DNA of 64,000 bases from an uncultured Caldithrix sp. (GCA_964355675.1 CAYHEC010000010.1:41160-105159); one strand, 5' to 3'; positions 36,793 through 54,610 are shown, counted from the stretch's first letter. Numbers and translations are program-made. Notes: generated by a model not told the origin, from the sequence alone.

Positions 36793-38067
36793 TTATTTTA
36801 AACTTAAGCTCCAATTTGTCCCACCCAGAACACAGCTAAAATGCCTCGCTACTGCGCCATAGCGTGCCATTGTGGAACCGGTTTCTATGATGTTAAAACT
36901 TGAAACATTTTTACGTGTATCAATGCTTAGCTTGTTTGGATTGTGTGCAGAAATATAAACAGTATACATGTCAGGGACAAGAAAGTTCTCCCTTATCCGA
37001 ATGGTTGCTTGATACAAACCGGGCTTAAGTTCCACAAACGCCTTATTATTTCCATCAGATAAACTACTAAATAATACATTAACATCATTAGAATTAGATA
37101 ACATAAAAGTGATTTCAGTATCTGTAGTGTGGCGCAATACTCTGAATTCAAGTCCAATCATAAACGGATTCAGAACATCTATATCCGCGCTCAGATTACC
37201 TTGATGGTCAGTTATCCAAACTTTTGTAAAGGATACGTTGGCGTCCAATTGAGGAACCAACGTAACAACTTTAGTTGTTTCTACTCTTTTATCAGTTATA
37301 TACTGGCTTATAATATCAGATACTACTCCAGTACCAGATATTCTGCCATTATCAAGTAATATCGCTTGAGTACACAATGACCGTACCGCTCCCATATTAT
37401 GACTCACAAACAGCACCGTCCGACCCTCGTGCGCGACTTCTCCCATTTTCCCAAGGCATTTTTTCTGAAACTCAACATCGCCAACGGCGAGTACTTCGTC
37501 AATAACAAGTATCTCCGGGTCCAGATGCGCCGCCACCGCGAATGCCAGGCGCACCTTCATGCCCGACGAATACCGCTTGACAGGAGTATCGATAAATTGC
37601 TCAACGCCGGAAAAGTCAACAATCTCATCGAACTTTCTGGTCACTTCAGCTTTTGTCATTCCAAGGATCGCGCCATTCAGAAATACATTCTCCCTACCCG
37701 TCAATTCCGGGTGAAATCCAGTCCCGACCTCAAGCAAAGCCCCGATTCGTCCTTTTATCTTGATCTCACCTGAGGTTGGCGCAGTTATATGTGAGATGAT
37801 TTTTAATAATGTTGACTTACCAGAACCATTCTTGCCGATAATGCCGAGTACCTCACCTTGATTAACTTCAAAGTTTATATCGCGCAACGCCCAGATGTAT
37901 TCGCCGCTCTTGTTGCCATGATCCATCTCGCCGATTTTTAGCAGTGGGTCAGGTTTGCCTCTCGCTCTCGCCCACCAGCGACTAAGGTCTCCTGACAATG
38001 TACCTCCCCCGATAAGTCCCAATTTATAGAACTTAGAGAGGTTTTCGACCTTGATAACGACACTCAT
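36793..38067 (-). CDS. ABC transporter ATP-binding protein for glycan export (Wzt/TagH/KpsT-like) with C-terminal extra domain
   Basis: Walker A 'GKNGSGKST', signature 'YSSGMKVRLAFA', Walker B 'ILVIDEV'; ~180-aa C-terminal extension as in Wzt carbohydrate-binding domains. Confidence 0.9.
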   Translation of the reverse strand: MSVVIKVENLSKFYKLGLIGGGTLSGDLSRWWARARGKPDPLLKIGEMDHGNKSGEYIWALRDINFEVNQGEVLGIIGKNGSGKSTLLKIISHITAPTSGEIKIKGRIGALLEVGTGFHPELTGRENVFLNGAILGMTKAEVTRKFDEIVDFSGVEQFIDTPVKRYSSGMKVRLAFAVAAHLDPEILVIDEVLAVGDVEFQKKCLGKMGEVAHEGRTVLFVSHNMGAVRSLCTQAILLDNGRISGTGVVSDIISQYITDKRVETTKVVTLVPQLDANVSFTKVWITDHQGNLSADIDVLNPFMIGLEFRVLRHTTDTEITFMLSNSNDVNVLFSSLSDGNNKAFVELKPGLYQATIRIRENFLVPDMYTVYISAHNPNKLSIDTRKNVSSFNIIETGSTMARYGAVARHFSCVLGGTNWSLSLK

Positions 38068-38107
38068 TGCGCGCTCAACAGGTCGATGATTGCAGTTACT
38101 ATGCCGC

Positions 38108-38959
38108 TCAAATTGTGTCCTCGAAAGTCCGTTCGACGCGGTTAAACAACGAGATTCCGATCAGAAGGATAGTGATAGACATCACAGCGCTATAGGAAAG
38201 ATAAATTAAATCAGCTTTACCGGCTCCTAAGAAGGCATAACGGAAAGTCTCGATCACTGGCGCCATCGGGTTGGCAACAACAATCCACTTGTATCGTTCG
38301 GGAATGCTCGACACCGGATAAATCACTGGCGTCGCATACATGAACAGGTGAATTCCAAAAGTCACCAAAAATCTTAAATCGCGGTAACGAATCGTCAACG
38401 AGGAGACGATTATGCCTAAGCCCAATCCGAGACTACCCATGATGATCAGAAGAACGGGAGTAAGTAAAATCCAAATATTCGGAGATACGCTGGCTCCGTT
38501 GATCAGAAAATAGATGAGAAAACCAATGAAAAAAAGGAACTGAATTCCGAAGGCTATAATATTAGAAATTACAATACTTACAGGCATTACGAGCCGTGGG
38601 AAATATACTTTGCCGAAGATGGCGGAATTTGCAAGAAATGTTTCCGCTGATTTGGTGATAACATTTGAGAAGTATGTCCAGGCGACCGTGCCAGACATAT
38701 AGAAAAGGAAGGGCGGCAGTCCATCAGTGGATAACTTCGCAACCTTGCCGAATATAATAGTGAACACTACGGACGTCAACAACGGCTGAATTATGTGCCA
38801 GAGCGGGCCGAGAATTGTCTGTTTGTACTGCGCCACAAAGTCGCGCCGCACAAATAGCGATACCAAATCTCTGTAGCGCCACAATTCTTTAAGACGAAGA
38901 TCAAACCACTTGCCCCGTGGCTGAATTACCGTCGTCCACTCAGTCTGGGTTTCCATCAT
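38108..38959 (-). CDS. ABC-2 type permease for glycan export (Wzm/TagG/KpsM-like)
   Basis: 283 aa, six hydrophobic segments, 'RDFVAQYKQTILGPLWHIIQP' N-terminal motif typical of ABC-2 permeases; adjacent to the ATPase. Confidence 0.85.
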   Translation of the reverse strand: MMETQTEWTTVIQPRGKWFDLRLKELWRYRDLVSLFVRRDFVAQYKQTILGPLWHIIQPLLTSVVFTIIFGKVAKLSTDGLPPFLFYMSGTVAWTYFSNVITKSAETFLANSAIFGKVYFPRLVMPVSIVISNIIAFGIQFLFFIGFLIYFLINGASVSPNIWILLTPVLLIIMGSLGLGLGIIVSSLTIRYRDLRFLVTFGIHLFMYATPVIYPVSSIPERYKWIVVANPMAPVIETFRYAFLGAGKADLIYLSYSAVMSITILLIGISLFNRVERTFEDTI

Positions 38960-39088
38960 TTAGTTAATGTCGTGATTATGTCGTTTTCGAGATCCGAACC
39001 AATTTCATCGATTTTGTTCGCCCGGAAAACAGGCATCGTTATCTCGTGATTAGAACGCAAATTATGATTTCCTCCGATGCTATGCAAA

Positions 39089-39970
39089 TTAGTTTTCCAC
39101 ATCATAAGTACTCAGTATATTTTCTAATTCTGATAGAAGTTGTCGTAATGAATCGAGAGAGTCATAACGAAGACTTATGCGGTTTTTAAAGATGTGGACA
39201 GAATCATTAGCTTTGGCGAATTGTTTTAGTTCGGGCAGGACATCCCATTTCTCGTTTGGGTTCCTCTTTTGTTTGCGACGGATAATTTCGTCATCGATCA
39301 ATTGCTTGAATTGCTCCAAGTCAAGGCTGGCGCCTCTCAAGATCAGCTTTGCCCTAAGGCGCTCAATAGGAATCTTCGATAATGCCAGCGCTTTCTTCAA
39401 TGAAAGGGTCTTGTCGGCGATTGCCTTTTTCAGGTCCGCTGGTAGAAGCAAGAGTGATAAGCGATCATTCACAAAAGACGCAGACTTACCGATTTTGGTG
39501 GCAATATCCCGGTAGGTTAATCCAAGTTGTTCGATTAATTGCTTGATGGCTCTGGCTTCCTCCATCGGTTCCAAGTCAGAGCGTTGCAAGTTCTCTATCA
39601 GGGAATATAGAAGGAAATCTTCTTGTGACAGATCTAACACAATACAAGGAACAGCTGTCAATTCTGCGCGCTTGGCCGCTTCCAATCTACGGTGACCAGC
39701 AATCAGAATATAGTGCTTGCGACCTTTGCGAATAACCAGCAAAGGCTCAAGGACCCCAACGTCTTTTATTGAGGCGGTGAGCTCATCAAGCGAGCGTTGG
39801 TCGTTCTCAACCCGTAGTGGAAATGAATTGGGGTAAAGAAATCCAATCGGCATCAGTTGGGCGTTCTGAAGAGGTTCAGGTTTGTTCGATGGAAGAGTTT
39901 GACCGAACGCTTCATGAAGTTCAGGCGCCTGCAGACCTATTGCAGGATTGTTATCAGGGTCGTAAGGCAA
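39089..39970 (-). CDS. ParB/Spo0J-family protein (ParB N-terminal CTP-binding domain + HTH), orphan
   Basis: 'LEPLLVIRKGRKHYILIAGHRRLEAAKRA' (GxRR box) and HTH-like 'LTYRDIATKIGKSASFVNDRLSLL'; no ParA gene in the window. Confidence 0.8.
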   Translation of the reverse strand: MPYDPDNNPAIGLQAPELHEAFGQTLPSNKPEPLQNAQLMPIGFLYPNSFPLRVENDQRSLDELTASIKDVGVLEPLLVIRKGRKHYILIAGHRRLEAAKRAELTAVPCIVLDLSQEDFLLYSLIENLQRSDLEPMEEARAIKQLIEQLGLTYRDIATKIGKSASFVNDRLSLLLLPADLKKAIADKTLSLKKALALSKIPIERLRAKLILRGASLDLEQFKQLIDDEIIRRKQKRNPNEKWDVLPELKQFAKANDSVHIFKNRISLRYDSLDSLRQLLSELENILSTYDVEN

Positions 39971-40418: not shown

Positions 40419-43400
40419 ATGAAAACGATCACTGGAATGCTACTCGCAGTAGTTCTTGTTTTGGTGGTGCCGCAGTTCGGTTTCGCCAGAATAATCAACG
40501 TCCCCGAAGAAAATCAGACTATTCAGGCGGCTATTAATACTGCAGAAGCAGGAGATACCGTTCTGGTTCAGCCGGGAATATACGGTGAAAATATTCTTTT
40601 TAACGGAATCGATATTGTCGTTGGCAGTCTGCTCCTGACGACCGGCGATCATGCTTATATCGACTCGACAATTATTGATGGAAACGCCAGCGCATCGGTT
40701 GTTAGAATCCGTACTGGTGAAACTGATGCTACTGTATTAACAGGCTTTACGATTATTAACGGCAGAGCAAATTATGGCGGCGGAGTTTATATTAACGCCG
40801 CCAGCCCGACACTCGATCATCTCATTATAACTCGAAATCACGCGATCAGAGACGGCGGCGGGATTTACTGCACGCATAACGCCAATCCCATTTTTAAACA
40901 TTTGACCGTGTCAGCCGATACTGCCGAACGGAGTAACGGCGGTCTGTTTACCTTTGATAATTCTTCAGCCACTATAATCAACTCCATCTTCAGGAGTAAC
41001 ATCCCTATCGGAACTCCTGCAGGACAAACGATTACCTTTTCCAACATTCAAAATGGTTACGCCGGACAGGGCAATATAAACAGTAATCCCCTCTTCGTCG
41101 ATCCGGGAAATGGTAACTTCCATCTGCAAGAAAATTCGCCGTGTATCGACGCTGGCGATCCGAATTCGCCTCCCGATCAAGATGAGTCTCGCGCTGATAT
41201 AGGGGCTTTTTATTTTGACCAGACTCCCTATCCGCGTATAGTTGCCTCGCATGACTCATTGGACTTCGGAGGCGTTCTTCCCGGTGCAGAACTTGCCAGA
41301 ATAATTACAATTATTAATCAAGGCGACGCCGACCTAATCGTTCAGCATCCCACGACCGACGGCGAACCTTTCCATGCCGATCCGGAGGATTGGGAGTCCG
41401 TTACTCTCGAACCGTTAGATACGCTCGAAGCCGAAGTTTTTTTCGCTCCAACCGAAATCGGGGATTTCGTGGGGCATTTCATCATCGAATCAAATGACCC
41501 TGATAACGAGACTCTTGATATAATACTCATCGGAAGTGGTGCTGTCCCGATCATAGCCGTAGCTTCTGATTCGCTTGATTTTGGTGTTGTTTTAATTGAT
41601 AATAGCTCCGAACTGCCTCTCGTCGTGAGCAATAATGGGGGAGCCGATCTGACAATAAGCGACGCCAGCGTTCAAGGAGATAACTACTCGATTGATTTTG
41701 GTGGTGAGTTTACCGTTCATCCCGATGAATCTGCTGAGATAATTGTCACATTTTCCCCGTCAGAAGCAGGCGGCTTCGATGGGGAAGTCACGATCACTTC
41801 TGATGATCCAGAGAATGCCGAAATGACTGTGGCCCTGGTCGGAGTCGGCAGAGAGCGAACCATCACAGAATTAGGGGCAATCGATACGCCGGGACAAGCG
41901 CTGGGAGTTGCTATCGTTGGATCTCTTGCACTCTTGTCCGACGGTCAGGGCGGTCTTCGAATAATCGATTATTCCGATCCTGCTAATCCTGCCGAAATTA
42001 GCTCCATCGAAACGCCGGGCAACGCCAGAGATATTGTTGTAGTAAATGGTTTAGCTTTTATCGCTGATGAGGAAAGCGGGCTGAGGATGATTGATTTCTC
42101 CGATCCCGAGCATCCTGCCGAAGTCTGGACGTTCGACACGCCCGGTCGGGCTTATGGAGTTGCGGTTGTTGGTTCGTTTGCTTATGTAGCCGATTACGAG
42201 GGAGGGCTCCGTATCGTAGATATTTCTGACCCCGAATCTCCCCATGAAGTAGGGGCATCCGAAACGAACGGCAATGCTCGAGCGGTAGCCATACTCGGTG
42301 ATTATGCGTACATAGCCGCGGAAGAGGGTGGCTTGGAAATAATCGATATTTCTGATCCGGAAAGTCCCCACCGAATTGGTTCTGTCGAAACTCCGGGGAG
42401 TGCCTATGGAATTATAGCTCGGGGAGGTTATGTTTATGTGGCCGATGGAGATAATGGTCTTTGTGTGATCGATGTTTCCACACCTGCTAACCCATCAGTA
42501 ATTACCAGCTACAACACGCCGGGGATTGCGTCCAACGTCACATCGACAGGTGAATTGATCTACGTTGCTGATTCGACCACTGGTATTCAAGTGATTAATA
42601 TAGCTGATCTTGAAAATATTGAAACGGTTGGTACATTCAACACGCATGCCGAAGCTTGTGATATTGCCATTCTTGGCGACTACTGTTTCGTCGCCGATGG
42701 AGAAAGCGGACTTCATGTATTGGACGTCTCGGAGATTGCTCAATACCCGGTTGTTTCCGTCACCCCAGAGGCGCTGAGGTTTCAGCGTACCGTTACCGGC
42801 TATAGTTCAGATATCACGTTGACAATCCATAATCGCGGTAATTGTACGTTGAATATTTTCGCGGTAGCGGTCGAGGGAAATTACTTCGAAAGTGAAATCG
42901 CAAATCCGGTGGCGATTGAGCCAATGGAGAGCTATGATTTGGCAGTTACTTTCACTCCGGAAGAAGCCGGCGATTTTGCTGGAACGCTAACAATTATTTC
43001 GGATGATCCATACCAACCTCACAAGCAAATCTCGTTGTCGGGAAGCGGGCTGGTCTTTGATCTTATCGAAGAGACCGGTTCACTCTTAGAGTTTTTCGCC
43101 GGAACTGAAGATGGATGCGCGTATGACAACTGGGTAAGCCATATCTCCGAGGGGGTTGCCCGAGACGGTTACAACGAATACTGTCCTCCGGAACTTGACC
43201 GGCAGACGAACGGCTTCGGCTCATTTACGATAATCGATAGTCTCGAAAATCCGGACGAAATAACCGCGAGTTGGTATGAGATATTTTCCAGCCTGTATCA
43301 TGGGGACATCGAAACCGCACGCGTAACCCTTGCTCTATCAAGTTTCAGCGATAAGTATCAGATAGTTCGTCTCGAAGATGGTGAGAAGAACTATGTAATC

Positions 43401-46400
43401 TTGAGAGAAAACCTGAATAATGAATACTTTGATGACAATGGTACTCAGGACGCCGCCGATGACGTTCGCGGGTCGTTCGACTTGGGATGGGGGTTGTTTG
43501 TCTTCGATCTTGACCCTTTCACGCCGGATGTTATCATCGAAGTACCTCACCCGGAAGACGATTTTCTTGCTCCTCCATCTGGGATCGATGCATTTTTTAC
43601 GATTGGCGCGAGAGCGCTCTTCGTAGCAGGAGCCGGTCGTGAAGTCAGCTGGACCGGTGAGGGAAACTATACAAATCTGAAGTCATTTTCAGATCCTACA
43701 CGCATTGAGGGTAGTGCTTTCAATCAAGCACATAAAGCGGGGGTGGACTTGATTGATCAGGAATTTGTCATCCAGATTCACAGTTACGACAGCGAATCGC
43801 ATCCCACTTTGATGCCCGCCGAACTTTCCACACGGCTCGACTACTATCCTAATCGCCCAGTTCTGGATTTTGAGAATCACTTCGATATCGTAAGTCTCAC
43901 GCCGGAGATTCCGGTTCCCGCCAATTCAACTGGACATGAAAACCACGATTCGCTACGGGTCGATGATTTCTATGCTGTCTGGTATGATATCGACGTCTTA
44001 GGTACTTATCGCTATCACAATCGCTTGGATATATCGAACGACGTGGTGATGTTCGCATCGAGCATGAATGAACAGATGCTTTACTCGATGGCTGGCCATG
44101 ATACTCTGCGGGACGATGAAAAATGGCTTCATGTCGAACAGGACGAATTTCCAAATGTCATTACTGAGGATATTCTAAACTATTATAGCGCTGGCGGAGC
44201 TATGACCTACCATAATTTCAGCCCAGCAGTTCAGTTTTACCGCCCGGTGTACACGGCGGTAAGAAACTATTACCATCATAGAACCCTGCATAACGTTCCT
44301 GATGATTATCAGACAATCCAGGCCGCTGTTGACGCTTCAGTCAGTGGAGACACAGTGCTGGTTCAGCCCGGGACTTACGTTGAAACCGTCAACTTCAAGG
44401 GCAAAGACATCACGGTGGGAAGCCTCTTCCTGAACACCGGAGACCAAGCCTACATAGAATCAACTATCATAGATGGCAACCGCAACGGCAGTGTGGTGAG
44501 ATTTGACAGTGGTGAGACCAATAATGCCTTGTTGACCGGATTCACTATTCGAAACGGTTCCGGTTCCATCGATGCTGAAAATGACATCAGCGGCGGGGGG
44601 ATACATTGCCACAACGCATCGCCCCGTCTGAATTATCTCAAAATTGTTAACAATAATGCCTGGTATGCCGCGGGTATTTATTGCGAATTAGGTTCCGATG
44701 CGATTATCGATCATTGTCTGATTACTAACAACGTCGCCGCTATTGCTGGTGGTGGTATGGATTGCTATGCCGCCAGCCCCACCATGAGCAACTGTACCAT
44801 TGCGGATAATCAGGCAATCAGGGGAGGCGGGCTCTACCTATTCGATGGCTGTAATCTGACTATTACGAACAGTATCTTCTGGAATAACGCTCCGCAAGAA
44901 CTTCTTTATTCACTTAGCGGAGTTCCCGATACGGTTATATTTCAGTACACTGACATTATGGGTGGTGAGCGTCGAGTCAACACTCACCGTAACGGCGCTG
45001 TCATCTGGGGAGAAGGCAACATCGATCAGGATCCCCGATTTGTTGCCCCTGAGGAGGGTGACTACTCTCTAAGCGAAGGAAGCCCCTGCCAAGACGCCGG
45101 AAATCCTGGCGATACACGTGATCCCGATGACACGTGGATCGATATGGGAGCGCTCTATTCTCCTTATGAGCGAGACAATCAGCCGCGCATGGTTGTTAAT
45201 TCTAATAGATTTGGCTTCGGAACTGTCGAAGTCGGGCAGAACCTTCACTTGATATTGCAGATTCACAACACGGGCTATGCCGCTCTTACGGTTTCAGAGA
45301 TGAGGCTATCAGGAGATCATCCCGACGACTTCAGCGCAGACTTCGGACAGGAGTTAACGGTCGATCCCGGTCAGATTCGCAACGTCACATTGACATTTGC
45401 CCCCGGCGATGCAGGTCGTCGAGAAGCCAATATGGTCGCCACAAGTAATGATCCGGTGCAGGCAGAGACTCAAATGGCACTTGGTGGATTCGGATTAATC
45501 CGTGGAGATCGTCATTTATGGATTGTTCCGGATGACCTTGAAAGAATTCAGGAAGCTATTGATATATCAGTCGATGGCGATACTATTCTCGTTAGATCGG
45601 GTGTTTACCAGGAGAATATCGATTTTTCGGGCAAAGCGCTTGTAGTAGGTAGCTTCTTCCTGACCGATCGTGACCCGGAATTGATCACAAATACCGTTAT
45701 CCGAGGCGACAACAGCGGCGGAGTGGTTTCTTTCATCAGCGGAGAGGATACGAACTCTGTATTATCAGGATTCACAATAACGGGTGGGCAAGATGGAGTT
45801 TACAGCGCGTCTTCAAATCCAACTATAAGTTATTGTGTTATAAATAGTAACGCGGCAGTGAACACCGGCGGCGCGGGATTGTACTGCCGCGGTGGCGCTT
45901 CGCCAAGCCTTCTTAACTGTACTTTGGTTGATAATTCAGCTCGATGGGGCGGTGGTATGTACATTCGAGAAGGAAGTGGCGTCACCTTGACCAACTGTAT
46001 TGTTTGGGCAAATGATCCAAACACAGTTTACTCATCGGGTAACGGCGTAAGAAATCGACTTTCGGTGGATCACTCGAATATTGAGGGTGATCGACAGGGG
46101 GTTGTTACCAACAATAATTGTCAGGTCACCTGGGGCGAAGGCAATATCAACACAGATCCTCTGTTTGTTGATTTGGGTAATGGAGACTTCCGTCTGGGAG
46201 CCAACAGTCCCTGCGTCGATGCAGGCAATGCCAATTCGCCGCTCGATGCCGACAGCACCCGCGCCGATCTTGGCGCTCTTTACTATGACCATCGGACGCC
46301 TCGTATCGCTGTGGAGCCTGCCGAGCTCGATTTTGAACTGACAAGAATAGGCGAATTGTCAGAGAAAGAGATAGTTATCTTTAACAGGGGTGTTGCTGAC

Positions 46401-48908
46401 CTGACCGTTACAAATCTCCCCATAGAAGGCGAATACTTCTCTTGCGATTTCAGGCAGGAACTCGTGATCCACCCGGATGACTCTACCGTTGTCACTGTAG
46501 CCTTCATACCTGAGGTGCAAGGCGATTTCGAAGCTGTTCTGACGATTTTGTCCGATGACCCTAACAATTGGGCGATTCCTGTTCGTCTTCATGGTGTTAG
46601 TGGGAGCCAACCACCGGAAATCATCAGCGAGATAGGAGATCTGTCCTACCCAGAAGACTCTGGTCCCTGGACAATCGCCGATCTCGATACGGTCTTCAAT
46701 GATCCGGAGGGAGATAACCTGACTTTCAGCGCTATAGCGCCTGACCCGTTGACGGTGTTAATTGGGAACGAAGATCATGTCTTGGTTCTTGAAGCGCCCG
46801 CCAACTTTAACACCGAAGGACTCGAAATTCAAGTTACCGCATCGGATAGTATTGGCGGAAGACGGGTGATGATAATAAGGACTTTACGCGGAACCGCTAA
46901 TCAAATGGTACGGCTTACAGATTTAGGCTCAGTACAGCCGAAAGATGTCGGCAGTACCAATGAAGGAATTAATTCCTCATCGACCCCATTCAAAATTCAC
47001 CAGATCAGTCGCGATGGATCAGCAGAGGATATATTTACGCTTGTTATAGAACCAATCAACGATGAACCAGTGTGGGTGAATTACCCGCAAGAGATCATCC
47101 GAGTCGAGAGTGGTGGCGTTATCGAGTTTGTAGTAGTAACGGAAGACGTCGATGGTGATCGGTTGAATTTGAGGATGATTGGCAACGATCTCCCGGATGA
47201 AGTCCAGTTTGTCGTAACTGAAAATGGCCGAGGTCGCTTAAATTGGCAAACCACAATTGAAACGGTTGGTCATTTTGAAGTAGTCCTGTCGGTTTCTGAC
47301 GGTGCGGTTTCGTCGGAGATCACTGTAAACGTGATTGTCATCCACCCGCCTCAGCACTTCACGGAATTTGACCAGACAGAGCAAAGCCACAATTTGCATG
47401 TAACAGGCGTCTCAATCAACGGTGACCCGGTCTCTGCTGGCTGGGAAGTCGGCGTCTTTACGCCTGCCGGTGTTTTGGCAGGTGGGGACGCTTGGACGGA
47501 AGTTGAGATGGATCTGCCAGTCTGGGGCGCTGATGACAACCATCAGGATTATTTCCACGAAGGCGAGACAATGAGTCTCAAGTTGTGGGACTACCAAGCT
47601 GATGCGGAGTGGGATGGTGGGGCAGTGGTCGAAGAAGGTGAAATGAATTGGGTGAATAACGGCAATACCGTTCTTACTGTCGAAAGCAACAGCCTAAAAA
47701 CATTGGAAGTAGCCATGCGTCTGGGCTGGAAACTGATTTCGGTCAACGTGATCCCATCCGATCAGGATTTCTGGGCTGGCGACCCCGGTCCTGAAATTGT
47801 TCCGATGATGTCCCAGCTCCGCCGTCCGAACAACGGAGCACATCATCTAATTCTGATGAAGGATGAGCGTGGGCGGTTCTATATACCGGAACGTGGTTTC
47901 GGCAATATGTCTTATTGGAATCTCGCAGAGAGCTATCAGGTTCGTATCGACTCCGCTATGTCGGCATTCTGGACAGGAACGCCGATCAATCCACAAGCCG
48001 ATGTTCCGATTACCCGTGGTTGGAATTATATTGCTTACTTTCCGGATTATCAACTTTCTGCGTACAGCAGAGATGGTTGCTATGTGTTATCGCCGATCAT
48101 CGATCACGTTCTCCTAGCCAAGGACGGCCTTGGTAACTTTATGATCCCGTCACGCGGATTCTTCAGCAATATGCCGCCATGGCGGGAAGGACAGGGCTAC
48201 CAGATCAATGTCGATCAAGATGTTGTCCTGAATTACCCACAAGCACAGAATCAGGCCGCGGCATTGTCAGTCGATCCTGAGTCTGTCAAGGGTCGTTGGG
48301 CCGATGTACCTTCGACCGGTGCAAACATGAGCGTGTTGGTCACCAAGGTATCGGGCGTCGATCTTTCGACTTCCGACCAGGTTGCCGCGTTCAGCCCGTC
48401 CGGTCTTATGGTTGGCGTAGGCCGAGTAATCGATGGACAGATTGGTATTGCAGTCTGGGGCGACGACGCCTCAACCCAAGCGGTGGACGGCCTGAAAGAC
48501 GGCGAAGCGTTCACGCTGAAGTTGTGGAATGCCGCTGAAGACGTAGTTGTCGATCTTAGTTCGCGGGTTATCGAAGGCGACCGCCTTGTCTATTTGACAG
48601 ACGGTTTCACGGTAATCGACGCGTCTGTAACGACAGCACTTCCGACCGAGTTCTATCTCAGTCAGAACTACCCGAACCCGTTCAATGCAGTGACTCGTGT
48701 AGCCTTCGGCTTGCCGGAAGCATCACGTGTGACGGTTCGCGTGTTCGATCTGTCTGGACGTGAAGTATCGACGTTGGTGAGTGGTGAGCTTCAGGCTGGC
48801 CATCACAGTGTCGTGTTGGATGGCGAATCGATGGTATCGGGCGTTTACATCGTCAAGATGGAAGCGACGAACTTCAGCGCCGTTCGTAAAGTAATGCTCG
48901 TGAAGTAA
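40419..48908 (+). CDS. Giant secreted multidomain surface protein: signal peptide, three parallel beta-helix (Pmp/pectin-lyase-like) modules, Ig-like domains, LVIVD beta-propeller, T9SS C-terminal sorting domain
   Basis: 2829-aa uninterrupted ORF; signal peptide 'MKTITGMLLAVVLVLVVPQFGFA'; module 'VP..QTIQAA...GDTVLVQPG.Y.E...F.G.DI.VGS' occurs three times; GGG[IV]Y / F..N repeats; C-terminal 'NYPNPFNAVTRVAFGLPEASRVTVRVFDLSGREV...SGVYIVKMEATNFSAVRKVMLVK'. Confidence 0.85.
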   Translation: MKTITGMLLAVVLVLVVPQFGFARIINVPEENQTIQAAINTAEAGDTVLVQPGIYGENILFNGIDIVVGSLLLTTGDHAYIDSTIIDGNASASVVRIRTGETDATVLTGFTIINGRANYGGGVYINAASPTLDHLIITRNHAIRDGGGIYCTHNANPIFKHLTVSADTAERSNGGLFTFDNSSATIINSIFRSNIPIGTPAGQTITFSNIQNGYAGQGNINSNPLFVDPGNGNFHLQENSPCIDAGDPNSPPDQDESRADIGAFYFDQTPYPRIVASHDSLDFGGVLPGAELARIITIINQGDADLIVQHPTTDGEPFHADPEDWESVTLEPLDTLEAEVFFAPTEIGDFVGHFIIESNDPDNETLDIILIGSGAVPIIAVASDSLDFGVVLIDNSSELPLVVSNNGGADLTISDASVQGDNYSIDFGGEFTVHPDESAEIIVTFSPSEAGGFDGEVTITSDDPENAEMTVALVGVGRERTITELGAIDTPGQALGVAIVGSLALLSDGQGGLRIIDYSDPANPAEISSIETPGNARDIVVVNGLAFIADEESGLRMIDFSDPEHPAEVWTFDTPGRAYGVAVVGSFAYVADYEGGLRIVDISDPESPHEVGASETNGNARAVAILGDYAYIAAEEGGLEIIDISDPESPHRIGSVETPGSAYGIIARGGYVYVADGDNGLCVIDVSTPANPSVITSYNTPGIASNVTSTGELIYVADSTTGIQVINIADLENIETVGTFNTHAEACDIAILGDYCFVADGESGLHVLDVSEIAQYPVVSVTPEALRFQRTVTGYSSDITLTIHNRGNCTLNIFAVAVEGNYFESEIANPVAIEPMESYDLAVTFTPEEAGDFAGTLTIISDDPYQPHKQISLSGSGLVFDLIEETGSLLEFFAGTEDGCAYDNWVSHISEGVARDGYNEYCPPELDRQTNGFGSFTIIDSLENPDEITASWYEIFSSLYHGDIETARVTLALSSFSDKYQIVRLEDGEKNYVILRENLNNEYFDDNGTQDAADDVRGSFDLGWGLFVFDLDPFTPDVIIEVPHPEDDFLAPPSGIDAFFTIGARALFVAGAGREVSWTGEGNYTNLKSFSDPTRIEGSAFNQAHKAGVDLIDQEFVIQIHSYDSESHPTLMPAELSTRLDYYPNRPVLDFENHFDIVSLTPEIPVPANSTGHENHDSLRVDDFYAVWYDIDVLGTYRYHNRLDISNDVVMFASSMNEQMLYSMAGHDTLRDDEKWLHVEQDEFPNVITEDILNYYSAGGAMTYHNFSPAVQFYRPVYTAVRNYYHHRTLHNVPDDYQTIQAAVDASVSGDTVLVQPGTYVETVNFKGKDITVGSLFLNTGDQAYIESTIIDGNRNGSVVRFDSGETNNALLTGFTIRNGSGSIDAENDISGGGIHCHNASPRLNYLKIVNNNAWYAAGIYCELGSDAIIDHCLITNNVAAIAGGGMDCYAASPTMSNCTIADNQAIRGGGLYLFDGCNLTITNSIFWNNAPQELLYSLSGVPDTVIFQYTDIMGGERRVNTHRNGAVIWGEGNIDQDPRFVAPEEGDYSLSEGSPCQDAGNPGDTRDPDDTWIDMGALYSPYERDNQPRMVVNSNRFGFGTVEVGQNLHLILQIHNTGYAALTVSEMRLSGDHPDDFSADFGQELTVDPGQIRNVTLTFAPGDAGRREANMVATSNDPVQAETQMALGGFGLIRGDRHLWIVPDDLERIQEAIDISVDGDTILVRSGVYQENIDFSGKALVVGSFFLTDRDPELITNTVIRGDNSGGVVSFISGEDTNSVLSGFTITGGQDGVYSASSNPTISYCVINSNAAVNTGGAGLYCRGGASPSLLNCTLVDNSARWGGGMYIREGSGVTLTNCIVWANDPNTVYSSGNGVRNRLSVDHSNIEGDRQGVVTNNNCQVTWGEGNINTDPLFVDLGNGDFRLGANSPCVDAGNANSPLDADSTRADLGALYYDHRTPRIAVEPAELDFELTRIGELSEKEIVIFNRGVADLTVTNLPIEGEYFSCDFRQELVIHPDDSTVVTVAFIPEVQGDFEAVLTILSDDPNNWAIPVRLHGVSGSQPPEIISEIGDLSYPEDSGPWTIADLDTVFNDPEGDNLTFSAIAPDPLTVLIGNEDHVLVLEAPANFNTEGLEIQVTASDSIGGRRVMIIRTLRGTANQMVRLTDLGSVQPKDVGSTNEGINSSSTPFKIHQISRDGSAEDIFTLVIEPINDEPVWVNYPQEIIRVESGGVIEFVVVTEDVDGDRLNLRMIGNDLPDEVQFVVTENGRGRLNWQTTIETVGHFEVVLSVSDGAVSSEITVNVIVIHPPQHFTEFDQTEQSHNLHVTGVSINGDPVSAGWEVGVFTPAGVLAGGDAWTEVEMDLPVWGADDNHQDYFHEGETMSLKLWDYQADAEWDGGAVVEEGEMNWVNNGNTVLTVESNSLKTLEVAMRLGWKLISVNVIPSDQDFWAGDPGPEIVPMMSQLRRPNNGAHHLILMKDERGRFYIPERGFGNMSYWNLAESYQVRIDSAMSAFWTGTPINPQADVPITRGWNYIAYFPDYQLSAYSRDGCYVLSPIIDHVLLAKDGLGNFMIPSRGFFSNMPPWREGQGYQINVDQDVVLNYPQAQNQAAALSVDPESVKGRWADVPSTGANMSVLVTKVSGVDLSTSDQVAAFSPSGLMVGVGRVIDGQIGIAVWGDDASTQAVDGLKDGEAFTLKLWNAAEDVVVDLSSRVIEGDRLVYLTDGFTVIDASVTTALPTEFYLSQNYPNPFNAVTRVAFGLPEASRVTVRVFDLSGREVSTLVSGELQAGHHSVVLDGESMVSGVYIVKMEATNFSAVRKVMLVK
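41880..42735 (+). repeat. Seven tandem LVIVD-type repeats (beta-propeller) within the giant protein
   Basis: Recurring ~40-aa unit 'TPG.A.GVA..G..AY.AD...GL.I.D.SDP..P' seen seven times. Confidence 0.7.
48651..48905 (+). other. T9SS (Por secretion system) C-terminal sorting domain of the giant protein
   Basis: Final ~85 aa begin 'FYLSQNYPNPFNAVT' and end 'KVMLVK', matching the conserved type-A CTD pattern. Confidence 0.8.
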
Positions 48909-48988: not shown

Positions 48989-50485
48989 TTAGAAATTATG
49001 GGAAATCATTAGCTGGTGAAATCCGCCTCCATAGGGAGCGCTGGCTCCTCGAGTCGTTGGCGCAGGCGACGCCGCGGGTAAACTGCGACGCCAGGTTTTT
49101 ACCGGGATTAATTGTGTGAATTGGTAGCTGACCCCTAATCCAATTAGAGTAGTGGAAATCTCAAGCTGTGGAATGCATCCCAAAATTCGGCGAACCGGAA
49201 GTTCGGAGTGTTGCAAATCATCTTGACCGAAGATCAGGAATTCAGGTCGCCAATGTTCGAGCGTAGCTTTTGGCCGAACATCGAACAGATGCGTTCCGAA
49301 CGACCATCTGAAAATATCGTTGCCTGCTTCAGATTTAAATCTGCTGAAGTGGGCTAAATAAAGTCTCCAAAGCGTCCCTTCAGAAGAGGTAATGAAGTAT
49401 CGCCTCATGCCGAGTAAATCAATAAATCCACTGGTGAAGGGCCAGAACTCTATGTGTCCCCGGCTTGCCGCGTCCCATTGAAAATACTCCAGTTCACCCT
49501 TCATCGACCGCGACGCCAATTTAGATAACTCACTATCAAACCCGGCAAAAATAGTTCGGACGTCAGTATCGAAACGGGTGATCTTGGCAAAGGATGACCC
49601 TCCCTCCAGTCCGCGAGCCTGAAGGCGCGACACATGCCCGCGACTCCCGACCCAAAACAAGTGACCTTCCTTCCCATATTCGATTGCCGCCCGATAATTT
49701 TTCACGATTCCAGTCGGTTCAAAGTTTGGAATAGGGGACATTTTATCAGGTGATCGAAGGCTACTCTGACTATATGAGGCGACGGCTTTAAAACCTCTCA
49801 GCTTGGGTGTGCGCAGAGAAATGCCATAAGTATCGTAGGATAGTGGTAGCTCGACTGCGGCGTTCTCTTCCTGCCAATCTCCTGACAGCCTCCATAAATC
49901 ACTCTGCCGCCGCCACCTGAATGTTACCCCACCGTCGCGATATGCCAACAACCTGCCGGCAATATCGAAACCAGCCGGATTGCTATAATTGTTGACGTCG
50001 GACTTTAACGTGACGTCTGCTTCCGCTCGGACAGCTAACTTCGACGTGGCAACACTGCCAGCAATCCCAAGCTTGGCTCCTTCAATATCGATGTGAATGA
50101 TTTGCTGAGCGAGACGTTGTTGGAGTTTCATCGACGTTCGGCTTGCAGAAGTTCCGACTTCGAGAGTCCAATCTGCCATCCCTTTTCTGCTGACAAACGC
50201 CTTCCCAAGAACCCTTCTGCCGAAGGATGCGCTCGGCCTCTCGATAGCGCCTTGACGGTAATAATCTGAATAGGTCGAAAAGAGAGAGAACCCTCCGGTC
50301 AGCCGCGAGCGGCCAACCGGAGGGTCTGTGACATTTGAATTGGGAAGACGATGCAACTCTGCCTCTGTCATCCATACGGATTCGTGTGTGGTCAGCAGGT
50401 AGTCGATGAAGGGATCAATCGTCAATGCTGACAAATTGCTCGCGGTCAAAAGCACCGCACCAAGCGCAATAATCAGCAGTGGCAA
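48989..50485 (-). CDS. Secreted protein, probable outer-membrane beta-barrel, function unknown
   Basis: N-terminal signal-peptide-like 'MPLLIIALGAVLLTASNLSA'; alternating amphipathic strands with many aromatic residues; no catalytic motif. Confidence 0.4.
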   Translation of the reverse strand: MPLLIIALGAVLLTASNLSALTIDPFIDYLLTTHESVWMTEAELHRLPNSNVTDPPVGRSRLTGGFSLFSTYSDYYRQGAIERPSASFGRRVLGKAFVSRKGMADWTLEVGTSASRTSMKLQQRLAQQIIHIDIEGAKLGIAGSVATSKLAVRAEADVTLKSDVNNYSNPAGFDIAGRLLAYRDGGVTFRWRRQSDLWRLSGDWQEENAAVELPLSYDTYGISLRTPKLRGFKAVASYSQSSLRSPDKMSPIPNFEPTGIVKNYRAAIEYGKEGHLFWVGSRGHVSRLQARGLEGGSSFAKITRFDTDVRTIFAGFDSELSKLASRSMKGELEYFQWDAASRGHIEFWPFTSGFIDLLGMRRYFITSSEGTLWRLYLAHFSRFKSEAGNDIFRWSFGTHLFDVRPKATLEHWRPEFLIFGQDDLQHSELPVRRILGCIPQLEISTTLIGLGVSYQFTQLIPVKTWRRSLPAASPAPTTRGASAPYGGGFHQLMISHNF

Positions 50486-50498
50486 TGCCTTAAACAGA

Positions 50499-52118
50499 TC
50501 AGTTTCCCATGCCGAAATCTTTCTGCCAATCTTCCTCAGTAAAACCCATAATCCGCTTCAAACGGCTGTCGGTCATACCGGGCAGAAGTCCACCTACCGT
50601 CGGGTTGGGAAAAATCCACTCAGCATAGCTATTAGCCTGCCAGGTGATATGCGGCGAATACCTCCACTTGGTTGACTCATTATATTGGCAACTTATGTTA
50701 GCCATCACATTTTGAACGCCAGCATCCAACCACCAGCCGTTAAAACTAATACGGATATAGGCATTGGATTTAGAGCTGTATTGCGCCACCCAACGGTCGA
50801 ATTCTATATCCCATGCCGGTGCGGGGAATGATTTTTCCTCACGGTATTCCTGCAATTGACCATTGTCATAATAAGCATAGCGACTCCAATAGTAAACGCC
50901 CGATGTGGGAATTTCTACTCCTGCCACTACCTGAGAGTCGATATAGTGATACTCCGTCTCTGACTCCACCGTGTCGAGGGTGACGCTGTAAGCGGGTAAC
51001 AGGGACTTCAAATCATTGACCGGGTGGTTGAACATTGCCGAAAGAGCGATAGCAAGGTCTTCGTCACCATCGCCAAAATCAACCTTGAATGTCTCTTGTC
51101 CCGTCAGAGCGCGCCGTACACGCGGGATGTAGGCTTTCAGAGAGTCAAGATCGGCGTCGTTATCGTGGTCCAATTTAATCAGGTCATTGTCTTGATCATC
51201 GGTTTCGCTCTCAAGGAAAGCGACGCCGCTTTCTACACTGTTCGCCGCGTCGAGCCAGGCTTGCCCGGCGGCTCCCATACGGATTGCCCCACTGGAGCGA
51301 AGCGCCATAAACGGCGAACCTTGGGTCAGCGCGACCCGCATTGCATTGCCGGTCCAGTCGCCCATATCATAGCTGTAGGCACAAAACTGGTTCAACAGCG
51401 CGAGCTGTACATCGACAGCAGTGATGGCGGCATAGATCTCGGTCAGGTCGAGCTCCAATGCATCTTCGTTGGGATCGCCCTGCATGCGTGGGGTAATCAT
51501 GAACTTGAAGTCAGGATGAGAAGTGATTTTTTTCAGCCTCGCAACGGCCCACTCAAGACGCGGAATCAGTTCGCTTGCCAGCAGATCCTGAAACTCCCCG
51601 ATGGTCGGATCACCCGCGGCGGCCGCTCGACTCATATTGGTTTCCATTCTCAGTACAGCAGAGATGGGCAGAACCGTCTCGGTAAGCCGGAGCGATAGTC
51701 CTGGGCCTGGTCTGGGAGCTCCCGCCATACCCGGTACTTCGAAGAAGGCGCCGCTATCCATAAAAGTCTTGGCGCGATCGAAGAAATCTTGAAAATCATG
51801 ATCCTGACTGATCATAATGATTTCCAGCACCCCTGCTCCAAAGTTGGCGGCTGGATTGGAGTCATCTGCTTCGAGGGCTTTCATATAAGCACTGTAAGGA
51901 CCGGTCAAGTCAACATCATCAGGCTTTTCCGGATTCTGGCCGTTGATTAGATCCATAAGGACGGCTTCAAGCTGAGTGTTGCCAGTCCCGACCCATGCAT
52001 TTGCGGCGGTGGTATCAGTCGGCGTTGAGACAGTTGGATTATCTTCGCCGCATCCAATAGTTAAAGCCATCCCGACGAAGAATACGATTGCGATTGATAA
52101 ACGAGTTATTGCAGACAT
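50499..52118 (-). CDS. Lipoprotein, function unknown
   Basis: Internal Met at 52118 gives 'MSAITRLSIAIVFFVGMALTIGCGEDNP' with lipobox L-T-I-G-C; track ORF extends 52 codons further upstream. Confidence 0.5.
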   Translation of the reverse strand: MSAITRLSIAIVFFVGMALTIGCGEDNPTVSTPTDTTAANAWVGTGNTQLEAVLMDLINGQNPEKPDDVDLTGPYSAYMKALEADDSNPAANFGAGVLEIIMISQDHDFQDFFDRAKTFMDSGAFFEVPGMAGAPRPGPGLSLRLTETVLPISAVLRMETNMSRAAAAGDPTIGEFQDLLASELIPRLEWAVARLKKITSHPDFKFMITPRMQGDPNEDALELDLTEIYAAITAVDVQLALLNQFCAYSYDMGDWTGNAMRVALTQGSPFMALRSSGAIRMGAAGQAWLDAANSVESGVAFLESETDDQDNDLIKLDHDNDADLDSLKAYIPRVRRALTGQETFKVDFGDGDEDLAIALSAMFNHPVNDLKSLLPAYSVTLDTVESETEYHYIDSQVVAGVEIPTSGVYYWSRYAYYDNGQLQEYREEKSFPAPAWDIEFDRWVAQYSSKSNAYIRISFNGWWLDAGVQNVMANISCQYNESTKWRYSPHITWQANSYAEWIFPNPTVGGLLPGMTDSRLKRIMGFTEEDWQKDFGMGN

Positions 52119-52326
52119 TGTTACCTCATGTAATAATTTGCACAAGATTGAGGTGTTTCTGTGATTGGATGTGCGACCAATTTCACAAGATTGCCTATAA
52201 AGGCCACCTCCGACGTTTAATATAAATACAATAGTTGAGGAACTCAAGTTGAAATCAAAAGAATCTAAAAACAAGTTAGTTAAGTGGCGCGATTTATAGT
52301 AATGATCAGGTCAAATTAGTGTAGTA

Positions 52327-52378: not shown

Positions 52379-54610
52379 TCATTTAATTAATTCTACGTAA
52401 AGATTTATAATCTTCGACGCATCCTCTTCAATTCCCTTTACTGGTTTTATATTCTGACGAAAGGTATCGATAATCTTCTGATTATCTAATACATACGTCA
52501 TCTTCTCAGCAAGATCTTCCATGTTCCCTGCTTCGAAGAGCAATCCATTCGAGCCATCCTCGATTAATTCAGGCAAGCCTCCTACGTTCGACGCGATTAT
52601 TGGAACACCGGCATGAAGCGCTTCGCGAGCCGTGGTCGGGTAGGTTTCAAAGCGAGAGGGAATAATGAGAACGTCATATTTCGACAGTATTTCAGGCAGA
52701 TCTTCCGGGCCGTATGAACCGCGGTAACGGACTTCGTGGTTATCGGAGAGTGATCTGAAATTGTCTTCGAGGATCTCCGGATTACGAATTTTACCGTAAA
52801 TATCAAGACTTGCCTTTGATGGATCGACCTTCGAAAAGGCCTGCAAGAGAATGTCCAATCCTTTAACAGGGGCAATGTTCCCGATAAACAAAAAACGAAC
52901 TCTATCGCTACCCTTATGGAAGATCTGGGGCTGGAAGAGGTTCATTCCAAGCGTGGAATGAATTGTTGCAGGATTTTCAAAACCATTTGCGCGTAAACGA
53001 TTAATCAGATCGAGGGAAGGAACCAACACTTTATGGAATTTCTGGTAAATTTCGCGATGTCGTCGAAGCCGGTGTGACATATATGCTTCGACATTTTCAT
53101 ACTTCTCGGCCGATGGGTTAAGCTGGCGATTCATGTAACATGTTGCACAATTCATTATAGAGGATGGTTCTTTCACACAATTATCAACACCTTCAAATTG
53201 CATGTGAATCTGGTCGCAGATCAGAAATGTATCGTGCAGGGTCAACACAAGAGGAATGCCTTTGGCGGCCACGGCATCGACGGCGGAGGTTGTCCAAAAC
53301 AACAAGTGCTGGAAATGAACGAGGTCAAAGTGATTGGCATCCAGCCACAACGAAAGCAACTGCCCCACATCAGGATAATCGACGTTATGACTTAATCTAT
53401 GCTTGGGCGGTAAGTTTAAGCCAACGGTAGTAACATTGTCATAAGTTCCCTTAGTTGCGTTTCCCACCGGTCTTGATGAATCGAATTCCGGATAGAGAAT
53501 TGTCACCTCTACACCTTTTTTCGAGATCGTACGGGCAAGATTAAGTGTGTAGAGTTCCGTTCCCGCAACTGATCGTACCAGAAAATCGTGAACTATAAAT
53601 AACACCTTGGGAAGACTATCGACGGTGCGAGAAGGCTTCACCCCACTCTCCATTGGCTCCATAATTAATTTGTTCTCGATTTCCAAGATCAATTGACTTA
53701 ATTGTTTATCGGGGTTAATTTTAAAGCAAATATTGAGATACTTCAATCCCCCTCTAAGATCACCCAAGCTGATCAACCTTATTGCAACAGTTATCAAAGC
53801 CTTTGCCTCTGAGCTTTGATTGCTGTTCCGATCCCAATCAATTTCGGGCGTTAATTCTCGTAGAGGATGACGCGCCAGTAATCCATTGACAACCAGAGCT
53901 TGGAAAGAAGTGACAACTTTTTCTTCGTTAGGGGACAGAATATCCTTGTTTCCGCGACACTTGACGACGGGGCGGGGGAGCAGTTTACAACGAATGAGTG
54001 AGGCAATGCGACTGCACCATTCATAATTGTGAGAGTGACGGAATGACTCGTCGTAATAACCGTAGGTGGCGTAACACGCTCGTTTAACCAGAGATCCAGA
54101 AAGGGGAAGGGGATCTTCAAGAAGAAACTTGGCAAGCAGTCCGGGGGAATCTGTGTACCAGTCTTTATAATTTATTTTATTAATAACATTAAGGTTGACA
54201 TCCGTTACAAACAAATTCCCATAGTAGAGCGATGCATCGGGGAATTCTGTGATTTTATCTGAGTAGCTCTGGAGTACGCCCTTTAACAACACATCACCCG
54301 AATCGAGCCAAAGAATGTATTCCCCTTTCGACTCGATAATTCCTCTGTTGCGTGCGGCTGGGGCGCAAAAATAATTCTGACGGAAGTAGCTCAGCCTTGG
54401 ATTAGAAAATCGATTGAACATTTCCGCGGTCTCATCCGTCGAACCATCATCGACAATAACCACTTCAACGGCAGGATAATCCTGCATTAGCGCGCTGTCG
54501 ATAGTTTCGGCGAGGATTTTGGCTCGATTGTGAGTCACAATGACAATGCTGATCAAAGGAGCAATCTTATGCTCCCTGATTGGTAGAGGATTTTCTTTAA
54601 ATGGGTCCAT
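52379..54610 (-). CDS. Bifunctional glycosyltransferase (N-terminal GT2 + C-terminal GT4 domain)
   Basis: N-terminal 'ISIVIVTHNRAKIL...VVIVDDGSTDET' (GT2); C-terminal 'IPSRFETYPTTAREALHAGVPIIASNVGGLPELI' (GT4 E-x7-E). Confidence 0.8.
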   Translation of the reverse strand: MDPFKENPLPIREHKIAPLISIVIVTHNRAKILAETIDSALMQDYPAVEVVIVDDGSTDETAEMFNRFSNPRLSYFRQNYFCAPAARNRGIIESKGEYILWLDSGDVLLKGVLQSYSDKITEFPDASLYYGNLFVTDVNLNVINKINYKDWYTDSPGLLAKFLLEDPLPLSGSLVKRACYATYGYYDESFRHSHNYEWCSRIASLIRCKLLPRPVVKCRGNKDILSPNEEKVVTSFQALVVNGLLARHPLRELTPEIDWDRNSNQSSEAKALITVAIRLISLGDLRGGLKYLNICFKINPDKQLSQLILEIENKLIMEPMESGVKPSRTVDSLPKVLFIVHDFLVRSVAGTELYTLNLARTISKKGVEVTILYPEFDSSRPVGNATKGTYDNVTTVGLNLPPKHRLSHNVDYPDVGQLLSLWLDANHFDLVHFQHLLFWTTSAVDAVAAKGIPLVLTLHDTFLICDQIHMQFEGVDNCVKEPSSIMNCATCYMNRQLNPSAEKYENVEAYMSHRLRRHREIYQKFHKVLVPSLDLINRLRANGFENPATIHSTLGMNLFQPQIFHKGSDRVRFLFIGNIAPVKGLDILLQAFSKVDPSKASLDIYGKIRNPEILEDNFRSLSDNHEVRYRGSYGPEDLPEILSKYDVLIIPSRFETYPTTAREALHAGVPIIASNVGGLPELIEDGSNGLLFEAGNMEDLAEKMTYVLDNQKIIDTFRQNIKPVKGIEEDASKIINLYVELIK

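Follow-up and report, generated by a model that had tools for sequence, protein, structure and literature searches.

Architecture of the Giant Protein

The window analysed here, a stretch of 64,000 nucleotides from an uncultured Caldithrix sp. [quoted passage not shown] The segment considered in this article lies within this ORF at 43029-44274, corresponding to residues 871-1285, and had been described in a sequence-only reading as an unassigned insert between an LVIVD propeller and a second beta-helix. Residues 879-1291 (43053-44291) are one discrete domain of a large, previously unannotated family, with limits defined by homology, and comprise a conserved N-terminal extension followed by an alpha/beta core that is predicted to be of the type found in M14 carboxypeptidases, N-formylglutamate amidohydrolases (FGase) and the poly-gamma-glutamate (PGA) hydrolase PghP.

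All parts of the giant gene described below lie on the plus strand. From its N-terminus, the protein comprises a NosD-like beta-helix, two immunoglobulin-like (Ig-like) domains of the ASH/choice-of-anchor-D type, a propeller of six LVIVD repeats recognized by Pfam and NCBIfam (approximately residues 480-770 in Pfam), a further Ig-like domain, the studied domain, and a second beta-helix, after which come an Ig-like domain, a beta-helix, another Ig-like domain, Big_9 together with unannotated repeats, and the T9SS C-terminal sorting domain. The second beta-helix, which starts with HNVPDDYQTIQAAVD at 44289-44400 (from about residues 1291-1300) and shows NosD similarity from residue 1300, forms the downstream boundary of the studied domain, as had been proposed; the upstream neighbour is not the propeller itself, as the earlier reading had it, but an Ig-like ASH/Cep192_D4/choice-of-anchor-D domain (42750-43049, residues 778-877), the best Pfam stretches of which are, in the order listed, PF22073 at 778-877 and PF15780 at 780-867. 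The protein carries both elements expected of a T9SS type A cargo, namely a hydrophobic, signal-peptide-like N-terminus (MKTITGMLLAVVLVLVVPQFGFA, 40419-40487, judged by eye from the translation) and a type A sorting domain at 48669-48896 (residues 2751-2826; PF18962, E = 3.4e-8; TIGR04183, E = 7.7e-10).

No rival long ORF overlaps the segment on either strand, the longest being of 85 aa. The exact protein (P0046) is present in a public protein collection, and a separate ENA assembly holds a protein of 2830 aa that is 99.7% identical to it (2821/2830), with a displayed alignment that reaches approximately residue 1512 and includes both the junction from the Ig-like domain to the studied domain and the boundary between the latter and the beta-helix. 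Because both boundaries are alike in this independent copy, an assembly chimera is excluded as the origin of the architecture.

An Unannotated Domain Family

The unassigned status of the segment was borne out, as searches against Pfam, NCBIfam, PHROGs and PDB sequences were empty between residue 877 and the second beta-helix. For residues 878-1290 no Pfam match was obtained even at E ≤ 10, the PDB sequence library yielded chance matches only (E = 0.05-0.5, with the single sequence and with the family profile), Pfam and PHROGs scans of 20 diverse family members gave nothing relevant, and a word-index profile search for Pfam-annotated distant relatives returned only the family itself.

A word-index search with residues 876-1295 against 5.8 billion proteins identified 35 homologues with 33-60% identity, most of which span the whole query, are 600-735 aa in length and derive from metagenome-assembled genomes of Calditrichaeota, Cloacimonadota and Marinimicrobia; none of the 35 carries a Pfam domain on the studied region. 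An exhaustive search of 1.84 billion cluster representatives with a hidden Markov model profile raised the number to 1015 proteins at E < 1e-3, including 147 at E < 1e-30, and a pattern scan confirmed 250 loci in GTDB species genomes. Record labels and neighbourhoods were read for the best 80 of these 250 loci, where the labels are mostly Cloacimonadota, (Neo)marinimicrobiota, Calditrichaeota, Ca. Hatepunaea, Fidelibacterota and unclassified bacteria, and where no conserved neighbouring gene was found, any single one being common to at most five loci. The viral contigs of IMG/VR yielded no family member. All family proteins scanned with Pfam are multi-domain, combining the domain with fn3, PKD, Big_9 or cadherin-like, beta-helix or CarboxypepD_reg modules, and in most of them the C-terminus is a T9SS sorting domain or a dockerin. 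Additionally, the short forms of the family (approximately 615-750 aa) are often encoded by adjacent tandem paralogue genes (L008, L048, L066), for example HUU59_07950/07955 (P0015/P0185) and IPK53_01585/01590 (P0193/P0195).

The segment is no insert unique to this protein. Among 186 full-length copies of the domain in 184 proteins, 183 start within the first 60 residues, directly after the signal peptide; a later start is confined to the window protein, where the domain begins at residue 876, and to the second copy in each of two proteins with tandem domains. The closest relatives (P0001 and L001-L004, 51-55% identity) follow the order signal peptide, domain, beta-helix, (Ig) and sorting domain, and past the domain the window protein remains collinear with them at 37-40% identity over approximately 400 aa. 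In Ca. Hatepunaea meridiana (L001), the Ig-LVIVD-Ig block is encoded apart, in genes that flank the family gene (L001:2-4630 and L001:10617-12626, both on the minus strand) and contain homologous modules, with 40.6% identity over 510 aa to residues 377-877 of the window protein. These alignments show a shuffling of modules among neighbouring T9SS cargo genes. Since the relatives start with the domain and L001 keeps the Ig-LVIVD-Ig block separate, the apparent insert is the usual N-terminal head of a widespread family, internalized here by the accretion of approximately 875 residues of adhesin-type modules.

Predicted Fold

The AlphaFold2 model of the domain reaches a predicted template modelling score (pTM) of 0.88 and exhibits the alpha/beta fold of carboxypeptidases with a central mixed sheet, which is likewise that of FGase; R1074 follows the second core strand, and a long helix closes the domain. 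Linker, Ig-like and repeat-module readings are ruled out by this predicted fold, and the assignment to a known non-catalytic linker or an Ig-like fold that could have overturned the proposal of a catalytic core was thus not obtained.

The top structural matches of the model are FGase-family structures, M14 peptidases, PghP/PghL and members of the AstE/AspA family. They include 2odf (Atu2144, FGase family; score 12.9), 2q7s (N-formylglutamate amidohydrolase; 11.4), 7eqx (carboxypeptidase B; 11.0), 3a9l (PghP, poly-gamma-glutamate hydrolase; 10.2), 1jqg (carboxypeptidase A; 10.0), 8v3q (CCP5; 9.9), 2bco (succinylglutamate desuccinylase; 9.8) and 5onj (YndL/PghL, poly-gamma-glutamate hydrolase; 9.6), and below these eight rank peptidases of the M17, M28, M20 and M42 families as well as Amidase_3 enzymes. 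The Foldseek signal falls short of this main structural comparison, yet for the same model it points to the same families: its best match in the PDB is 2qj8, an aspartoacylase-family protein (E = 1.9e-3, probability 0.90), and its best match in BFVD is a carboxypeptidase of Bacillus phage Moonbeam (E = 1.4e-4, probability 1.0), followed in that list by PGA hydrolase, FGase, AstE/AspA and zinc carboxypeptidase.

Conserved Residues and Candidate Active Site

The sequence-only reading had characterized the segment as rich in conserved-looking His, Asp and Glu residues. In raw composition the segment exceeds the whole protein only modestly (D 9.9 vs 8.3%, E 7.5 vs 6.1% and H 3.1 vs 2.1%), while specific His, Asp, Glu and Arg residues are strongly conserved, and the clusters of such residues expected in homologues are present across the 186 copies. 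The two peptides that had been quoted from it, PHPEDDFLAPPSGIDAFF at residue 1043 (nt 43545) and QIHSYDSESHP at residue 1119 (nt 43773), both contain motifs of this kind.

At least 95% conservation is observed at 35 positions, most of them polar or charged, including Y902, D903, H908, E911, F933, G934, R996, E997, W1024, G1025, H1044, D1047, D1048, R1074, E1075, N1086, D1092, R1095, Q1119, H1121, D1124, D1150, H1238, E1240 and E1243, with R1074, D1092 and R1095 conserved in every copy. The window protein retains all 35 positions intact, every proposed catalytic residue included. The family motifs are PHPxDD, GAGREVxW, SDPTR, QxHSYD and HIELDExP, and the following elements represent them, with an invariant pair upstream. 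R996-E997 of an LRE motif (43404-43409) is 100% conserved; in the model, the strand that bears the metal site comes after a hairpin, and the pair lies on one beta-strand of that hairpin. The PHPEDD motif (residues 1043-1048, 43545-43562; H1044 99%, D1047 98%, D1048 99%) occupies a loop that in the model joins strand 160-167 to helix 176-187, and the AGAGREVSW motif (residues 1070-1078, 43626-43652; R1074 100%, E1075 95%) would take the position of the M14 segment 'NPDG...R127'. The SDPTR motif (residues 1091-1095, 43689-43703; D1092 and R1095 100%) is followed by the QIHSYD motif (residues 1119-1124, 43773-43790; H1121 99%, D1124 99%), with H1121 within strand 241-248, and by the HVEQDEFP motif (residues 1238-1245, 44130-44153; H1238 97%, E1240 98%, E1243 99%), with E1240 within strand 361-367. 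The layout of the model can therefore be written as strand-[HxxDD]-helix-strand-[R...DPxR]-helix-strand[H]-...-strand[E]-C-terminal helix.

The N-terminal conserved sub-region (residues 879-940, 43053-43238), which includes Y902, D903, H908, E911, D927, F933 and G934, carries the motifs CAYDNWxSHxSEG and LDxQTNGFG at 92-100% conservation. It is modelled at a predicted local distance difference test (pLDDT) of only 60-77, and nothing in the matched core of known structures corresponds to it. Within this sub-region, E911 (43149-43151) and D927 (43197-43199) covary, E being replaced by K/R together with D by N/Y in five proteins (P0086, P0125, P0135, P0138 and P0149), a change that looks like the exchange of a putative N-terminal cation site for a basic side chain.

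Taken with the fold, these residues suggest that the domain is probably a catalytically competent metal-dependent amidohydrolase or peptidase, most likely a zinc enzyme, belonging to a new family in which fold and active-site arrangement are those of the M14/FGase/PghP group. In the mechanism proposed, the zinc ion would be held by two residues of the loop that follows core strand one, H1044 and D1048, together with H1121 on a later strand, and E1240 on the penultimate core strand would act as the general base that activates the zinc-bound water. The invariant R1095 of SDPTR, and possibly R1074, would bind a carboxylate of the substrate, so that an amide or peptide bond beside a free carboxyl group would be cut, either by exo-action or on an acidic polyamide. 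The reaction would take place at the cell surface, where the flanking beta-helix, Ig-like and LVIVD modules may provide positioning, binding or spacing.

Coupled Losses and Degenerate Copies

Substitution of the putative metal-site residues is rare and concerted, and it provides the strongest evidence from within the family. Of the 186 copies, two and no more have a replacement at D1048, and the same number at H1121; at E1240 the number is again two, counting full-length copies, and all three losses fall in the same two proteins, P0147 (G, D and S) and P0158 (S, E and A), which are 25% identical to each other and align unambiguously around these sites. Because residues separated by 73 and 119 positions in sequence are lost only together, in two proteins so distant, D1048, H1121 and E1240 behave as one functional unit, as a set of metal ligands and general base would. 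The earlier suggestion of a catalytic core is thus strengthened by the zinc-hydrolase fold, by the near-invariant His/Asp/Arg/His/Glu set and by this co-loss.

The degenerate copies also bear on a different explanation, in which the domain is a non-catalytic module, either a pseudo-enzyme that binds a ligand in the old active-site cleft or a structural spacer in an adhesin. Apparent pseudo-enzymes do occur in the family (P0147, P0158 and the first copies in P0036/P0037), the rest of the giant protein consists of adhesin-type modules (beta-helix, Ig-like and LVIVD), and no enzyme family is matched at the level of sequence. However, the window copy retains every one of the highly conserved positions, the triad is lost in only 2 of 186 copies, and near-invariance of His, Asp, Glu and Arg residues over copies of 25-60% identity is typical of active enzymes, which makes a non-catalytic role improbable.

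A second set of coupled residues, D1047/E1075/N1086, changes jointly in P0156 and in the tandem-domain proteins, where the N-terminal copy is affected, and is joined by D1124 and D1150 in P0036 and P0037 only; it may mark either a further metal site or a subsite for the substrate. Tandem double copies of the domain are present in some relatives (P0036, P0037, L005:4537-11601 and L007:3-3626). In the first copy of P0036/P0037 the substitutions are D1047->T/A, E1075->N, N1086->E/T, D1124->P/N and D1150->S, with the His/Asp/His/Glu set kept, and this first copy could be a specialized or regulatory one.

The same residues raise the question of whether a metal enzyme with this phosphorylase/peptidase-like fold carries out a different chemistry, for example that of an N-acetylmuramoyl-L-alanine amidase, a small-molecule deacylase or desuccinylase, a glutaminyl cyclase, or a binuclear aminopeptidase of the M28/M20 type. 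D1047, E1075, D1124, H1238 and E1243 exceed the needs of a mono-zinc M14 site, and D1047/E1075/N1086, with D1124 and D1150, could form a second metal or substrate site. These families nevertheless score below FGase, M14 and PghP in the structural comparison; the order HxxD(D)...R...DPxR...HSY...xE is that of mono-zinc M14 and not that of M28/M20, in which the motif order is H-D-E-D/E-H; and a cytosolic small-molecule role fits poorly with a T9SS-exported surface protein. A different chemistry is accordingly regarded as quite unlikely, and it and the pseudo-enzyme reading are possible explanations of lower likelihood than a zinc hydrolase.

Several points weigh against the assignment as a zinc hydrolase. 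No sequence-level link to a known family emerged from Pfam, NCBIfam, PHROGs or the PDB (HMMER), and catalysis is predicted. Profile-profile comparison with hhalign was not significant, giving probabilities of 0.04% against Escherichia coli MpaA (M14C) and 0.15% against an alignment of carboxypeptidase A1 (CPA1); both comparators were shallow and of low diversity, the latter comprising only vertebrate CPA1 at ≥78% identity. On the structural side, Foldseek reaches E-values of no better than about 2e-3 in the PDB, model confidence is low in loop 1079-1090 and the SDPTR region (pLDDT 45-52), and the putative clustering of the ligands is deduced from secondary-structure positions and co-loss. As for individual residues, H1044 is kept in both putative pseudo-enzymes, the choice of D1048 over D1047 as putative metal binder is drawn solely from the co-loss pattern, and the corresponding metal ligand in M14 and PghP is Glu, while that of the domain would be Asp, probably in an HxxxD rather than an HxxE arrangement. 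Finally, the domain is N-terminal in all other family members, and its activity at an internal position is only predicted.

Possible Link to Poly-gamma-glutamate

A more specific proposal concerns the substrate. With the same fold and metal site, the domain could be an extracellular depolymerase or processing enzyme for PGA or a related gamma-glutamyl or acidic polyamide, a functional analogue of phage PghP and Bacillus subtilis PghL with which bacteria of the FCB group would remodel or consume PGA. In the GTDB loci, 27 of 83 family ORFs are fused to a PGA_cap/CapA-like domain (Pfam E of approximately 1e-57); these fusions are proteins of 1.55-1.9 kaa, mostly labelled Marinimicrobia, with PKD modules and a dockerin or T9SS sorting domain at the end (for example L014:5926-10692 and L028:5956-11568, with 25 other loci). 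The PGA_cap segment has a very weak similarity of 6.6 bits to the YDNYxSHxSEG motif of the domain, which is probably due to chance. Additionally, PGA synthesis genes have been described as near-universal or common in Cloacimonadota, a phylum rich in the family, in two reports whose consulted passages mention no hydrolase (PMC13082233, PMC8542988), and the HxxxD...H...E pattern resembles HxxxxE...H...E165 of PghP/PghL.

Other observations speak against this specificity. PGA_cap is a broad metallophosphatase-like family, most members of which have no proven role in PGA metabolism, and the fusion is limited to a single sub-lineage, where it may have arisen once. PGA_cap is absent from the window protein and from its closest relatives, and the window encodes no such domain. 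Moreover, the PF05908 model gives no match, and the PGA-binding residues H77/T79/S80 of PghL are not evident, Arg being found where M14 has R127/N144/R145. Since the CapA-like fusions, the PGA synthesis genes of Cloacimonadota and the PghP-like fold do coincide, PGA-directed activity is maintained as a minority hypothesis of rather low probability. An equally low probability is attached to its broader form, in which the family would be the missing extracellular depolymerase or processing enzyme of PGA or related acidic polyamides in Cloacimonadota, Marinimicrobia and Calditrichota-like bacteria, with fused CapA-like domains and perhaps an extended metal site (D1047/E1075/N1086/D1124/D1150) and an N-terminal lid.

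If the zinc-hydrolase assignment is correct, a group of unrecognized secreted enzymes with hundreds of species-level members would join the M14/FGase/PghP fold group; the fold and likely chemistry are already familiar, and the family is new. It lacks annotation in Pfam, NCBIfam and PDB sequences and is largely confined to uncultured phyla of the FCB group, which break down proteins and other polymers in oceans, in digesters and in sediments without oxygen. The domain would then be the sole recognizable enzymatic part of many large T9SS- or dockerin-bearing surface proteins, and naming the family would shift such proteins from "hypothetical adhesin" to "surface enzyme", with H1044, D1048, H1121, E1240 and R1095 as a concrete set of candidate residues. 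The CapA-like fusions offer a testable link to PGA turnover; if that substrate is the right one, the family would be a new group of peptidases whose specificity is also new, connected to a capsule or biofilm polymer for which a part in the syntrophy of these uncultured phyla has recently been proposed.

Gene Surroundings and C-Terminal Repeats

The giant gene sits in a cell-envelope polysaccharide locus. Upstream, at 36793-39970 on the minus strand, lie genes for a ParB-like protein and for an ABC-2 polysaccharide exporter of the Wzm/Wzt type. Directly downstream, two minus-strand ORFs of 498 and 591 aa (48989-50485 and 50499-52274), both without a Pfam match, separate the giant gene from a cluster of GT2/GT4 glycosyltransferases at 52379-56046, also on the minus strand. 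Because all flanking genes are on the opposite strand, the giant gene has no operon link to this locus. No M14A-like or PGA_cap-like ORF was found elsewhere in the window.

The C-terminal part of the giant protein contains internal repeats without a Pfam match at approximately residues 2330-2750 (window positions about 47400-48660), as illustrated by the pair '...GVFTPAGVLAGGDAW...LPVWGADD...GETMSLKLWD' and '...AAFSPSGLMVGVGRV...IAVWGDDAST...GEAFTLKLWN'. Two modules of the form 'GW(K/N)xI...', likewise without a Pfam match, are also found in this part.

Comparison with Known Hydrolase Families

Among known systems, the candidate active-site residues of the domain follow the order and secondary-structure setting of H69/E72, R127, N144/R145, H196, E270 and the C-terminal helix of the M14 enzyme carboxypeptidase A, a correspondence of topology. 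The local likeness to M14A sequences is seen in SDPTRN vs VDPNRN, QIHSYD vs SIHSYS and HIELDE vs FTFELRD, so that SDPTR would correspond to DPNR (D142/N144/R145), H1121 to H196 of IHSYS and E1240 to E270 of FTFELRD, for which the roles of H69xxE72, R127, N144-R145, H196 and E270 in carboxypeptidase A have been described (PMC7698808). In the hhalign comparison, which overall is not significant, SDPTRN aligns with VDPNRN of CPA1, and R1074 does not align exactly with R127. Both M14 enzymes and the domain are secreted, the activity of the latter being predicted. However, PF00246 (M14) gave no match at E ≤ 10 for the window domain and 20 diverse members, no M14-type pro-domain (PF02244) was detected, the spacing from the second His to the Glu is approximately 120 residues compared with 74 in carboxypeptidase A, and the domain differs from M14 in having approximately 65 extra N-terminal residues with invariant motifs of their own and more invariant acidic and His residues. 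A tblastn search with MpaA against phages found two Stenotrophomonas phage M14 genes only.

FGase proteins, which provide the highest structural scores, are cytosolic enzymes acting on small molecules. They have about 250-280 residues (structures 2odf, which is Atu2144, and 2q7s), whereas the domain has approximately 415 and is exported and embedded in multi-domain surface proteins; PF05013 (FGase) gave no match at E ≤ 10, and neither 2odf nor 2q7s appeared in the PDB sequence searches with the single sequence or the profile. The AstE_AspA family (2bco, 1yw6, 2qj8 and 2i3c) comprises cytosolic deacylases of small N-acyl amino acids, with a different C-terminal domain and with no sequence match to the studied domain.

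PghP (3a9l) and PghL, which is YndL (5onj), use a mono-zinc His/acid/His site with the distal Glu165 and a non-HxxE spacing, HxxxxE...H...E165 (PMC6506827), and in this respect they are like the HxxxD...H...E pattern proposed here. The domain is twice their size, and part of its family is fused to CapA-like PGA_cap. No H-x-T-S element of PGA hydrolases is recognizable in it, the segment of the PGA-binding residues (His78/Thr80/Ser81 in PghP/PghL) being occupied by invariant Arg residues, and PF05908 (PghP/PghL) gave no Pfam or PHROGs match.

Because these sequence membership tests fail and the profile-profile comparison with M14 is not significant, the domain is not filed as a member of M14, FGase or PghP, and is placed, on the strength of its predicted structure, in a new family of the same fold group. 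The hallmarks that set this family apart from those systems are a putative Asp ligand in place of Glu, a probable HxxxD arrangement, the N-terminal extension of approximately 65 residues, longer inserts, and additional invariant acidic and His residues.

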